A DNA stretch of 64,000 bases. It comes from Candidatus Fermentithermobacillaceae bacterium (GTDB lineage Bacteria > Bacillota > Sulfobacillia > Fermentithermobacillales > Fermentithermobacillaceae). The DNA is taken from assembly GCA_018052475.1 (NCBI GenBank), contig JAGPNG010000003.1, positions 32,723-96,722 on the forward strand. The letters are read 5' to 3'. Each line of letters begins with the position of its first letter. Position 1 is the first letter of the stretch. Below are positions 43,718 to 46,689 of this stretch, in pieces. The notes under the pieces are model-generated. The model saw only the letters and a list, made by a program, of their open reading frames with translations. It did not search any database and was not told the DNA's origin. The position numbers were made by a program, and so were the translations under genes.

Positions 43718-45274
43718 TCAAACTGTATGTTTTTTCAAGTACGACCTCCAAGTAATCGCCCATTTTGAAGGGTCGTCAAACCAATCTTGGCGGATTTTGT
43801 GTACTACGCTCTTATGAGGAGCACTACGCAAGACCTGTGGGCTCTCGTATGCTTCACGTGACACTTCTTTCAGCGCTTCTACGTACTCGTCCAGTTCTTC
43901 CTTTGACCAAGATTCTGTCGGCTCAAGAGTGAAGGGTTCTGCAACGATCCACGGATGGTGACTTGTCCAGTAATGAAGGCCAAAGTCACACATCCTCCTC
44001 TGCACATCTTCGGTGGTTATGCCGGTCTCCTCGGTCAAAGGTGCCCAGCTGTATCGCACCTGTTCAAAACGATGTTTGCCCGGTGCGTACGGAATATGGA
44101 TCCCCCTTATCTTTCTTATCTTCGATAGGAGATAGTTGCTGTTAAGAACCGCCACCTTAGATACTTCCCTAAGGCCGTCTTCTCCGAGGCTCATTATCCA
44201 CGCGTATGCTCTGACTACCGCAGGGATCCCGCCATAAAACATCTTGATTTTCCCGATCGAATTCGGAAGATCATAGTTCAGAGTATACTTTTCCCCATCG
44301 AAATCTACCACAGGAACCGGCAAGAACTTCTCAAGATCCTTCTTGACACCCAATGCCCCCGAACCAGGTCCTCCGCATCCATGCGGCGAAGAAAAAGTTT
44401 TGTGCAGGTTGAAAAAACACATATCAAAATCTGCTTCTTTAGCCCTGGTGATACCTAAAATACCGTTTGCGTTCGCTTGGTCATAACCACATAGGCCACC
44501 TGCTTCATGCACGATTCGTGTAAATTCCTTGATGCGCGGGTTGAATACTCCGGTATCCTCAGGATTGGTCACAATAAGGCCAGCAGTTCGCTCCGATACA
44601 ACATTCTTCAAAGCCTCTAGATCGGGATAACCATTCTCATCCGGGAGAATAGTAATCACCTTGAATCCCTTGACCGCTGAGACTGCCGCGTTAGAAGGAT
44701 GAGAAAACATCGTGGTTATGATCTCGTCTCGATGTTCTTCTTGGTTTCTTAATCTGTGATAGGCACGGATAATAGAGGCCATACCCAAAGAAGCCTGAGA
44801 ACCCCCACCAGGTTGAAACGAGAACCGATCAAGCCCTGAGATCTCCCTGAGAAACAGATCCGTCTTATACATTATTTCAAGCACGCCCTGTACTGTTTCG
44901 GCCGGTTGATATGGGTGCAGGTCTTTTATCTTCGATGAGGAGGCAAATCTCTCATTTATCTTAGGGCTGTACTTCATTGTGCAAGTCCCCTGCCCTATCT
45001 CTATATTAACATCGACACCTAAGGTTTGCTGAGACAGCCGAAGGTAGTGCCTAAGAACCTGCGCCTGAGAGAGTTCAGGAAGACACGGCGGTGTCTGCCT
45101 CTTCATGAATTCCGGCAAATCCTCCCAAGGGTTCCCGACTTCATTTGTGACCTCTTCTTCCGCTCGTTCCACGAAAATCGCGGATTGCCCCTCTTTACTC
45201 ATCTCGAATATAATGGGTTCGTCCCATTTAGCCTGGTGAAACCCTTGGCGCGACAGCTGTCTTTCCTTTTTCAT
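43718..45274 (-). CDS. glycine-decarboxylase P-protein subunit 2 (GcvPB)-like PLP enzyme, divergent
   Basis: CTMKYSPKINE and the PLP-lysine motif NLHKTFSSPHGCGGPG are present. The canonical SAHGTNPA region reads FSHPSNAA. Confidence 0.75.
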   Translation of the reverse strand: MKKERQLSRQGFHQAKWDEPIIFEMSKEGQSAIFVERAEEEVTNEVGNPWEDLPEFMKRQTPPCLPELSQAQVLRHYLRLSQQTLGVDVNIEIGQGTCTMKYSPKINERFASSSKIKDLHPYQPAETVQGVLEIMYKTDLFLREISGLDRFSFQPGGGSQASLGMASIIRAYHRLRNQEEHRDEIITTMFSHPSNAAVSAVKGFKVITILPDENGYPDLEALKNVVSERTAGLIVTNPEDTGVFNPRIKEFTRIVHEAGGLCGYDQANANGILGITRAKEADFDMCFFNLHKTFSSPHGCGGPGSGALGVKKDLEKFLPVPVVDFDGEKYTLNYDLPNSIGKIKMFYGGIPAVVRAYAWIMSLGEDGLREVSKVAVLNSNYLLSKIRKIRGIHIPYAPGKHRFEQVRYSWAPLTEETGITTEDVQRRMCDFGLHYWTSHHPWIVAEPFTLEPTESWSKEELDEYVEALKEVSREAYESPQVLRSAPHKSVVHKIRQDWFDDPSKWAITWRSYLKKHTV

Positions 45275-46689
45275 CGAGTCCCCCCTCCTTTTAACCCGCA
45301 GACGATCTCTTCAAGCGCTTCACATAGACAGAGAATGTCATCTTTTGTGTGGATCTCGGTAACGCAGTAAAGAGCAGTCTGGCCCAGCTCCTTAAATTCT
45401 TCTGATATGTCTTTTCCTCCCAAAATCCCTCTGGACTCAAGCTCCCGGTTGATCTCGGCCACCGTAAGTCCAGTTCTATCGAAATTGATCGCAAACTCCT
45501 TGAAGAAATGGCCTTCAAAACCGTTCACCTTTATCCCTTTTATATCTGCGATTTTCTTGGCTGCATACGCGGAGTTGCGCATTATTGTCTCACCTACGGT
45601 CCTCATTCCCAAAGGACCCATAAGAGCAAGATACACTCCTGCAGTGATGCCCCACAAAGCTGCTGCAGTTCCTACGAACTCTTTCCCTTTTTCCCTCTTT
45701 GCGAAAGAAGTCCTGTCGTAAAGGACATCGCCAAAGCCCCATTCGCCTTCTACGTCTGTCTTAGCTATTCCAAATAGTCTAGAAGGATACTCGGCAACAT
45801 ATTCTTCTTTGTCACAACTAGCTATAAATCCCGCGACGCCCCCACCGTAGCTCATATTAATGCCCAGCGTCTGTATATCGCCGACTACAATATCCGCACC
45901 ATATCTAGAAGGTGGCGCGAGAACTCCAAGTGTAATTGGGTCCACTCCTACTAACAAAAGGGAACCGTTCTTATGGGTTTCTGAAGCTATATCTTGAGCC
46001 GTTGTCTCCAAAAGGCCGAAGTAATTGGGGTTTTCAAGATAGACGCCTGCTACGCTAGGAGTCAGTCGAGCCACTAGGCTTGGCACGTCGACACAGCCAG
46101 TCTTGGGATCGTATTGCACTTTTTCTACCTTCATGACCGGGTCTGCATAGTTCTTAATTGCCGCTAGCCTTTGAGGGTTTATGTTCCCTGCCACCAGAAC
46201 AACGGGACGTTGCGTTATGCGACCAGCCATTCTTACGGCAGTTGCGGCAGCCTGACACCAGTCATAAGTCGGGACATTCACTACATCCATATCTAAGAGT
46301 TCAGCCATCATGCTTTGATACTCGAACAGCGCTTGAAATCTCCCATGGTCCTCGTATGGTTCTCCGGCATACGCAGTAAGGAACTCGGACCTGCATGCTA
46401 CTTCGTCACATATTGCAGGTACGTAGTGCTGATAGCAACCTGCTCCAAGGAAGCTCAAGTAATCCTTAGTAGTCTTATTCTGAGACAATATTCCTTCCAT
46501 GTGCCGTGACAACCCTTCCTCTGAAAGGACAGGGGGCGGCAGATCCATGCTACATCTGTATCTCAAATCTTCAGGAATTTCCGAAAAGAGTTCTTCGATA
46601 TCGTCTATACCTACATCAAGCATCATTTCTTTTTGTACTTGCGTCTGCGAATTCGGAATATAAGGATGCGAAACCATCCGGTCGCTCAT
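45271..46689 (-). CDS. glycine-decarboxylase P-protein subunit 1 (GcvPA)-like, divergent
   Basis: HPYIPNS and SFLGAGCY are present. Canonical YTPYQPEISQG reads YAGEPYEDHGR, and canonical REQHIRR(D/E)KATSNIC reads RTSFAKREKGKEFVG. ATG at 46689 after AAGGGTGG. 4-nt overlap with subunit 2. Confidence 0.72.
   Translation of the reverse strand: MSDRMVSHPYIPNSQTQVQKEMMLDVGIDDIEELFSEIPEDLRYRCSMDLPPPVLSEEGLSRHMEGILSQNKTTKDYLSFLGAGCYQHYVPAICDEVACRSEFLTAYAGEPYEDHGRFQALFEYQSMMAELLDMDVVNVPTYDWCQAAATAVRMAGRITQRPVVLVAGNINPQRLAAIKNYADPVMKVEKVQYDPKTGCVDVPSLVARLTPSVAGVYLENPNYFGLLETTAQDIASETHKNGSLLLVGVDPITLGVLAPPSRYGADIVVGDIQTLGINMSYGGGVAGFIASCDKEEYVAEYPSRLFGIAKTDVEGEWGFGDVLYDRTSFAKREKGKEFVGTAAALWGITAGVYLALMGPLGMRTVGETIMRNSAYAAKKIADIKGIKVNGFEGHFFKEFAINFDRTGLTVAEINRELESRGILGGKDISEEFKELGQTALYCVTEIHTKDDILCLCEALEEIVCGLKGGGTR

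Follow-up and report, generated by a model that had tools for sequence, protein, structure and literature searches.

The 64-kb window analysed here (64,000 nucleotides of contig JAGPNG010000003.1 from Candidatus Fermentithermobacillaceae bacterium) carries on its minus strand five co-directional genes with short gaps, namely a DapF-like gene, an EamA transporter gene, PA', PB' and a gene for a short-chain dehydrogenase (SDR). PA' and PB' are divergent homologs of the alpha and beta subunits of glycine decarboxylase (P-protein, GcvPA/GcvPB). Judged from their sequences, they belong to a separate clade of two-subunit P-protein paralogs, which is ancient and has been widely transferred, and we regard this clade together with an inferred two-step catabolic module as the likely best explanation of the locus as a whole. 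The three genes in question are:

45271-46689, minus strand: PA', divergent P-protein alpha-subunit homolog and member of the PA' clade, 472 amino acids (aa) from the ATG at 46689
43718-45274, minus strand: PB', divergent beta-subunit homolog, the subunit that binds pyridoxal phosphate (PLP), 518 aa
42922-43704, minus strand: SDR-1, short-chain dehydrogenase, ortholog of the partner found with the clade, begins 13 nt past the PB' stop

A ribosome-binding site (AAGGGTGG) precedes the ATG of PA' at 46689, with an alternative upstream GTG at 46698 according to the list of open reading frames (ORFs), and PB' and PA' overlap by 4 nt (ATGA). Both proteins are recognised by the family models for split P-proteins (NCBIfam NF001696/NF003346, Pfam PF02347). 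PA' scores 232 bits against Pfam GDC-P and 493 bits against NCBIfam GcvPA (cut-off 364), and PB' scores 587 bits against GcvPB (cut-off 441). As the curated "equivalog" cut-offs of NCBIfam are exceeded by both, annotation software would automatically label them GcvPA and GcvPB. The two-subunit structure 1WYT is matched by PA' in chain A (E = 1e-67) and by PB' in chain B (E = 1e-93). Matches of PB' in the ESM Atlas outside PF02347 (group II decarboxylases, SPL-like) were discarded, since their scores of only 0.84 lie in the range of chance matches. The best NCBIfam model for SDR-1 was PRK06138 with 268 bits, below its cut-off of 312, and the glucose 1-dehydrogenase subfamily model was passed with 236 bits (cut-off 215).

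The genome (1.40 Mb in 23 contigs, 92.6% complete) encodes a second P-protein pair in a gcvT-gcvH-gcvPA-gcvPB operon on contig C21, which also supplied the H-protein gene that the sequence-only reading of the window had proposed to look for. This pair reaches 665 bits (GcvPA) and 787 bits (GcvPB) with the NCBIfam models and has kept all canonical motifs, including NLHKTF; the consensus motifs that the sequence-only reading had quoted match this copy and are correct. PA' and PB' are 37% and 45% identical to it, and because a canonical operon is present in the same genome, the pair in the window is a paralog. The nearest relative, a metagenome-assembled genome (MAG) of Candidatus Fermentithermobacillaceae, contains both sets, with 91-94% identity in the canonical gcvT-H-PA-PB operon and 81% in PA'. 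Its ordinary GcvP keeps the canonical motifs, and the unusual motifs are not common in the ordinary GcvP of this lineage, contrary to what would have refuted the sequence-only reading. On the basis of these sequences we assume that PA'/PB' are not the P-protein of glycine cleavage in this organism.

Changed loops and retained cofactor residues

The coordinates of the decisive motifs were checked by translation:

46333-46377, minus strand: rebuilt alpha loop TAYAGEPYEDHGRFQ (canonical TAYTPYQxEISQxxLQ), the new form one residue shorter
45655-45714, minus strand: rebuilt mobile-loop/lipoamide-channel segment of the alpha subunit, RTSFAKREKGKEFVGTAAAL (canonical REQHIRRxKATSNICxNQAL)
44675-44710, minus strand: beta motif MFSHPSNAAVSA, His kept
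44393-44410, minus strand: NLHKTF with the PLP Schiff-base Lys292 at 44399-44401, kept
44375-44377, minus strand: Cys300 in PHGCGGPG (canonical PHGGGGPG)

All non-canonical motifs quoted in the sequence-only reading are present in place, and the PLP lysine is retained as it had stated. Its alpha motif does occur within 46312-46377, a range that adds seven residues to TAYAGEPYEDHGRFQ itself. The N-terminal extension of PB', which had been put at about 30 aa, comprises 14 aa and holds the clade-invariant R-x-FHQAKWDEP; the figure of 31 aa is the excess of the whole protein over the GcvPB of this genome, which is made up of residues at the N-terminus, short insertions within the chain and a tail at the C-terminus.

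To define fixed differences, 75 PA' were compared with 31 canonical alpha subunits and 68 PB' with 24 canonical beta subunits, and a position was counted if it is at least 90% conserved in each group with different residues. At the replaced positions, 75 clade members and 31 canonical sequences are each fixed for a residue of their own, and the motif differences are not chance drift. In the alpha loop after TAY, TPYQxEISQ has become AG-EPYEDH (TAYAG-EPYEDH in the window), and the T, P, Y, Q, E, S and Q that are 100% conserved in the 31 canonical sequences are all replaced in PA'. In the segment 330-351, REQHIRRxKATSNIC is changed to RTSFxxRExGKEFVG across the clade, the window reads RTSFAKREKGKEFVG, and the invariant Cys is Gly in 75/75 members. 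Other changed alpha positions are P143, T153, E222, Y226 and S306, with GDV at 323-325. In the beta subunit, PDSAHGTNP is replaced by TIFSHPSxA (TMFSHPSNA in the window), YDGAN by YDQAN and PHGGGGPG by PHGCGGPG, so that position 300, newly fixed and eight residues past the PLP lysine, is Cys in 68/68 PB' and Gly in 24/24 canonical sequences. Further beta changes are Q70, GFYPLGS to N.xIGQGT, NTL..E to EDT..N, and E404, Q405, R407, W436 and H440. The overall shift of the replaced residues is toward charged and polar side chains.

The PLP-site residues are kept in PB', namely Lys292, Asp265 (YDxAN) and the ring-stacking His192 (SH), and the pair is predicted to be PLP-competent. Secondary literature assigns the REQHIRR..NIC segment of P-proteins to a loop that shifts when PLP binds, forms part of the wall of the lipoamide channel and contains an active-site Cys (PMC4767401, PMC10185560). 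Located by homology with P-proteins, the changed segments would be rebuilt substrate-pocket and lipoyl-channel loops. A docking model furthermore paired R373 and K376 of the human enzyme with glutamates of the H-protein (PMC7259800). The equivalent sites are basic in every canonical sequence and are K/V/L and K/E in the PA' clade, which would fit a relaxed need for H-protein docking, as far as the computational docking model holds on which this argument depends.

The loss of the canonical active-site motifs would also be expected of a dead or regulatory remnant of a duplicated P-protein. We regard such a remnant as extremely improbable, because Lys, Asp and His of the PLP site are conserved, the substituted residues show no variation in bacteria or archaea at an overall identity of about 60%, and the reading frames are intact and covered by contigs of metatranscriptome (RNA) libraries.

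The PA' clade and its gene neighbourhood

In a FastTree phylogeny of the alpha subunits rooted on GcvPB, the 75 PA' sequences are monophyletic with an SH-like support of 99, and 31 bacterial and 8 Asgard canonical GcvPA fall outside; all trees used here are FastTree trees. PA' does not branch within canonical GcvPA, and the canonical Asgard copies retain REQHI(K/R)RE(K/R)ATSNIC. The alignment and phylogeny that had been suggested as a check thus yielded a separate PA' clade in addition to the fixed differences. Thousands of relatives were obtained in a protein search, and the best 120 of them, 59-81% identical, come from Aminicenantes, Acidobacteriota, Chloroflexota, Synergistota, Aerophobetes and several Asgard groups. 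Nearly all of these 120 carry TAYAGEPYEDHGRFQ; the exact TAYAGEPYEDHGRFQAL was found in 77/120, and nearly all others deviate by one or two residues. Across phyla and domains, clade members are 57-81% identical with near-invariant new motifs, and the clade signatures TAYAGEPYEDHGRFQ, RTSF..RE.GKEFVG, FHQAKWDEP, YDQAN and PHGCGGPG are all present in the window proteins. Pattern scans detected the clade in at least 570 species genomes and at least 585 metagenome contigs, ranging from Bacillota to Asgard archaea and including cultured strains of Paenibacillus, Peribacillus, Brevibacillus, Neobacillus and Bacillus. Among 39 relatives of the present genome, PA' was found in 8 and canonical GcvPA in 36, and therefore PA' is an accessory gene.

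The neighbourhood of the clade was analysed in 160 loci (2.26 Mb) using our own ORF calling and BLAST clustering. PB' follows PA' in 141 of them, and an SDR lies within a few genes of PA'/PB' in 114. These SDRs belong to two subfamilies; SDR-1 directly adjoins PA' in more than 50 loci and a second type, SDR-2, occurs in about 20. In an SDR tree the enzyme of the window (P0003) groups with the SDR-1 subfamily, and its gene is located downstream of PB' and not upstream of PA'; the sequence-only reading had not recognised it as the conserved partner of the family. A 370-aa protein with NAD-kinase fold and intact GGDGT (c3) follows PB' in 60/160 loci. Neither SDR-2 nor this protein was found in the window or elsewhere in the 92.6%-complete genome, which for the kinase-fold protein was queried with a single protein. 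The Bacillota loci generally have a reduced SDR-PA'-PB' form without the kinase-fold protein, and the window likewise contains the three-gene form.

No gcvT was found in the 160 loci (0/160), and a GcvH-like domain in one only (L143), non-adjacent to PA'. The clade travels with one SDR subfamily and not with gcvT or gcvH. The protein in L143 (2941-3729, one metagenome contig) has 262 aa with a GcvH-like C-terminal half, 36% identical to the GcvH of this genome, and is encoded 2.3 kb upstream of PA'. It was rejected as a module partner, as the match is a domain of a longer protein and an opposite-strand gene lies between it and PA'. Apparent PA'/PB' fusions (long ORFs in L084, L033, L037, L014 and others) were dismissed as ORF-calling artefacts in GC-rich DNA, and the neighbour clusters c26 and d21 as antisense artefacts. 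The genes flanking the module in Asgard archaea (PPDK, SurE, helicase, RNA polymerase) reflect lineage synteny and were not used as a functional clue.

Of 48 genomes carrying the clade, 45 also contain a canonical P-protein, either of the split type within a gcvT-(H)-PA-PB operon or of the fused type seen in Bacteroidota. In the other three, PA' is the sole P-like gene and no gcvT was found; these are a Paenibacillus isolate (G035), Paenibacillus sp. 1P03SA with a main contig of 5.8 Mb (G036) and a Synergistaceae MAG (G044). A gcvH was not found in G035, where two models were used, or in G044. Such a set, as found in both Paenibacillus genomes (loci L073 and L075), is unusual for a Bacillota isolate in view of the lipoyl relay in Bacillus, which depends on GcvH. 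From this distribution, PA'/PB' appear to be independent of the T-protein.

These data also bear on the possibility that PA'/PB' are a second ordinary glycine decarboxylase isozyme that uses the GcvH and GcvT of the genome, for example in the reductive (glycine-synthase) direction or under other conditions. Both proteins pass the equivalog cut-offs, the PLP residues are intact, and GcvH and GcvT are encoded in this genome, with GcvH in 46/48 carriers. Nevertheless, we consider an isozyme very unlikely: residues that are invariant in all canonical sequences, Asgard included, are replaced, linkage to gcvT is absent from all 160 loci, three carriers have no gcvT, and glycine cleavage does not account for the conserved SDR partner. 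The sequence-only reading had taken the pair for a neofunctionalised paralog with conserved cofactor residues and altered substrate- or partner-contact motifs, and this view is borne out by the canonical C21 operon, the well-supported separate clade with its conserved new motifs, the missing gcvT linkage and the carriers without gcvT and canonical P-protein.

Compared with two-subunit GcvPA/GcvPB (EC 1.4.4.2; Thermus thermophilus 1WYT and the C21 copy), PA'/PB' share the fold family, the alpha/beta split, the gene overlap, the PLP Lys, Asp and His and a cofactor site in the beta subunit only. They differ in their low identity (37%/45%), in the rebuilt alpha loops with loss of the Cys, in the changed beta motifs, in the 14-aa FHQAKW extension and in having an SDR partner in place of gcvT/gcvH linkage. 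By homology PA'/PB' are members of the P-protein superfamily that depart from GcvPA/GcvPB in four features, namely alpha loops, beta motifs, orthology and gcvT/gcvH linkage.

Upstream of PA', the remaining two of the five genes are:

46760-47731, minus strand: EamA/DMT transporter (Pfam EamA), 61 nt upstream of PA'
47768-48631, minus strand: DapF-like gene with Ser for the second catalytic Cys, co-directional, 36 nt upstream of the EamA gene

EamA is a lineage-specific neighbour: the order is identical in L012 and L123-L125, and the spacing between DapF and PA' in G056 is consistent with it. It is a candidate importer or exporter for the module. The tie of the DapF-like gene to the module is uncertain. 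This homolog, the only DapF match in the 92.6%-complete genome, reads ASGTGSS where B. anthracis DapF (PDB 2OTN) has ACGTGAC. A link between the Cys-to-Ser variant and the module was rejected, because relatives that lack PA' have the variant as well; it characterises the lineage and is shared by relatives from several genera and a sister family. The surroundings of the module (37381-42842 and 48802-51994) encode S9 and M20 peptidases, DUF4438, MscS, a split FtcD and an Orn/Lys/Arg decarboxylase and are oriented toward peptide and amino-acid catabolism. Promoter and terminator scans gave counts close to the shuffled expectation. DNA of the window is contained in wastewater, biogas and anaerobic-digester metagenomes of many studies.

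Proposed reaction and flanking genes as substrate clues

We assume with good probability that PA'/PB' act as a non-glycine PLP enzyme coupled to the SDR; a C-C cleavage like that of the P-protein as the specific chemistry is a tentative suggestion. The three window genes would then form a two-step catabolic module for a primary amine that is bigger and more polar than glycine. SDR-1 with NAD(P)+ would oxidise the hydroxyl adjacent to the amino-bearing carbon of a hydroxylated amino compound, and the resulting alpha-amino carbonyl or acid would be a substituted glycine analogue. PA'2PB'2 would bind the amino group as PLP aldimine and break the bond beside that carbon, just as the P-protein expels CO2, with the new Glu, Asp, His, Arg, Gln, Trp and Cys residues holding the extra polar part of the substrate. 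Cys300 is possibly catalytic, product release would occur without T-protein, and EamA may move substrate or product. In a more far-reaching reading, the clade would be a new P-protein-derived PLP enzyme acting on hydroxylated amines once the SDR has oxidised them, with cleavage of the C-C bond at their aminomethyl or alpha-amino carbon; it might for instance split 5-oxolysine into glutamate and a C1 amine, or act on an amino-sugar acid. This reading we put forward as rather speculative. Candidate substrates are 2-amino-2-deoxy-aldonates derived from amino sugars and 1-amino-2-ols of the 5-hydroxylysine type.

Flanking genes in other loci provide clues to both candidates. LacZ-type GH2 beta-galactosidases flank the module in 20 loci and GH63 enzymes, including YgjK-like ones, in 11; other glycan-related flanks are SusD, GH95 and SGSH-type sulfatases. 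In Paenibacillus and Bacillaceae loci, sugar ABC systems with a histidine kinase and an AraC-type regulator are present. L190:2169-6793 encodes two GlmM-like mutases, NagB (342 bits, cut-off 326) and NagA (315 bits, cut-off 226), and this NagB/NagA/GlmM set precedes SDR-PA'-PB' by a few kb on the same strand in four loci (L190, L054, L196, L197), two of which (L054, L197) have a sulfatase downstream. A NagX-like glucosamine N-acetyltransferase was found in five loci.

Such neighbours would suit an oxidative amino-sugar route, in which SDR-1 oxidises C1 of glucosamine, galactosamine or mannosamine to a 2-amino-2-deoxy-aldonate and PA'/PB' either removes ammonia and water from this acid, in the manner of glucosaminate ammonia-lyase, or decarboxylates it; the kinase, in loci that have one, would phosphorylate the keto-deoxy product. 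Besides the Nag genes, the sulfatases and the glycosidases, this route is supported by the glucose 1-dehydrogenase subfamily cut-off, which is passed by both SDR subfamilies, and by the new pocket residues (Glu, Asp, His, Gln, Arg, Trp), which are typical of sugar binding. Amino sugars are moreover abundant in sediments, where the clade is common. Even so, the route seems unlikely to us, as the SDR family assignments are weak and the elimination chemistry is unlike that of the P-protein. No sugar genes were found near the module in the window or its lineage, and the genome yielded no match to Eda, the 2-keto-3-deoxy-6-phosphogluconate (KDPG) aldolase, which together weaken the amino-sugar route in this organism.

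A second group of flanks is related to peptides and amino acids and comprises C69, M24, M20 and S9 peptidases, amino-acid permeases, OCD-family genes and family-3 binding proteins. In L022 (3335-14796, uncultured bacterium), co-directional genes encode an amidohydrolase, a glycyl-radical activase, the trans-4-hydroxy-L-proline dehydratase HypD (1329 bits, cut-off 1100), an Xaa-Pro peptidase, PA', PB' and another amidohydrolase, so that HypD and the peptidase are directly upstream of PA'. This layout suggests collagen-type amino-acid catabolism. In L023, HypD and its activase are also near the module. Three Chloroflexota-like loci (L164:2903-11400, L172, L061:218-5000) show a different surrounding of PA'-PB', with MttB-family methyltransferases, B12-binding corrinoid proteins and a GntR regulator, which may link the module to methylated or C1 amines.

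The Glc-alpha1,2-Gal disaccharide is the glycan of collagen hydroxylysine, and a degradation of hydroxylysine-type amino alcohols is conceivable in two versions, with the substrate free or released from Glc-alpha1,2-Gal-beta-O-Hyl glycopeptides. In the first, oxidation at the 5-OH of 5-hydroxylysine would yield an aminomethyl ketone, chemically the nearest analogue of glycine, and PA'/PB' would split this ketone into glutamate and a C1 amine; in the second, the kinase and PA'/PB' act like the animal hydroxylysine kinase/phospho-lyase pair. YgjK-type GH63 and LacZ-type GH2 flank the module in three phyla, which is in line with such substrates, as are the HypD and Xaa-Pro peptidase genes of L022 and the flanking peptidases, permeases and OCD-family genes. 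We nevertheless judge this degradation to be quite improbable. Collagen-type substrates seem unlikely for deep-sediment Asgard archaea, Bathyarchaeota and Aminicenantes, HypD linkage is restricted to two loci, the proposed reaction is not known to have a precedent, and the kinase was found neither in this genome, queried with a single protein, nor in any Bacillota locus. The common theme of the flanks may be a hydroxylated primary amine or amino acid from glycoconjugates or peptides, and we treat these neighbours as leads and not as tests.

The proposed sequence of SDR oxidation and cleavage by PA'/PB' follows the same logic as threonine dehydrogenase and 2-amino-3-ketobutyrate CoA ligase (Tdh/Kbl), where the dehydrogenase places a carbonyl beside the amino-bearing carbon and the C-C bond next to it is then broken by a PLP enzyme of fold type I. 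The two systems are functionally analogous and not homologous: Tdh/Kbl involves the alpha-oxoamine synthase subfamily, a CoA acceptor and a known substrate, and we found no evidence of CoA use for the module. The five-gene form with the NAD-kinase-fold protein and its intact GGDGT resembles animal hydroxylysine kinase with 5-phosphohydroxylysine phospho-lyase, and ethanolamine kinase with its phospho-lyase, pairs in which a kinase and a PLP enzyme act on a 1-amino-2-ol, although the folds of both proteins are unrelated. The kinase-fold protein c3, which is not in the window, has the same Pfam domains (NAD_kinase N and C) as AcoX/COG3199, the NAD-kinase-fold proteins of acetoin dehydrogenase operons.

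Several points weigh against a catabolic module that operates apart from glycine cleavage. The flanking themes are heterogeneous (glycan, peptide and methylamine-type MttB), the Asgard flanks are uninformative, and the lack of nearby sugar genes and of Eda counts here as well. The gcvH present in 46 of the 48 carriers is compatible with use of a lipoyl carrier by PA'/PB', which may occur. Two of the three genomes without gcvT are draft assemblies, and completeness is stated for none of them. The assignment of the changed residues to the pocket is derived from homology to published P-protein descriptions and not from measured distances. As a point in favour, contigs of four metatranscriptome studies cover the five genes with 95-100% identity (mostly at least 99%) and span every junction. 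This hint of expression is weak, because DNA may be present in RNA libraries and a contig need not correspond to one transcript. Finally, a literature search for a characterised GcvP-like family, for the gene combination and for its expression retrieved no paper on the clade and no characterised member.

To this family the window contributes a reduced form of three genes, carried by a digester bacterium with a small genome that contains its own canonical control, and the analysis adds the SDR-1 orthology, carrier genomes without T-protein and wider context themes. A direct consequence concerns annotation, since the NCBIfam "equivalog" models, and hence PGAP, label both proteins GcvPA/GcvPB. 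Genomes including those of Asgard archaea and candidate phyla are credited with a component of glycine cleavage or the reductive glycine pathway that is probably something else, and three genomes of our set would count as P-protein-positive without a T-protein. If the function holds, no earlier functional offshoot of the P-protein is known to us. Anaerobic digesters, sediments and soils commonly contain the module, which occurs in loci for glycan, amino-sugar and peptide utilisation and may represent a missing step in the turnover of organic nitrogen. Cultured carriers (Paenibacillus, Peribacillus, Brevibacillus and Neobacillus) make this question tractable. If the C-C cleaving function is true, an undescribed catabolic pathway for abundant organic nitrogen, common to Asgard archaea, Bathyarchaeota, Aminicenantes, Chloroflexota and soil Bacillota, would be hidden under the label of glycine cleavage.

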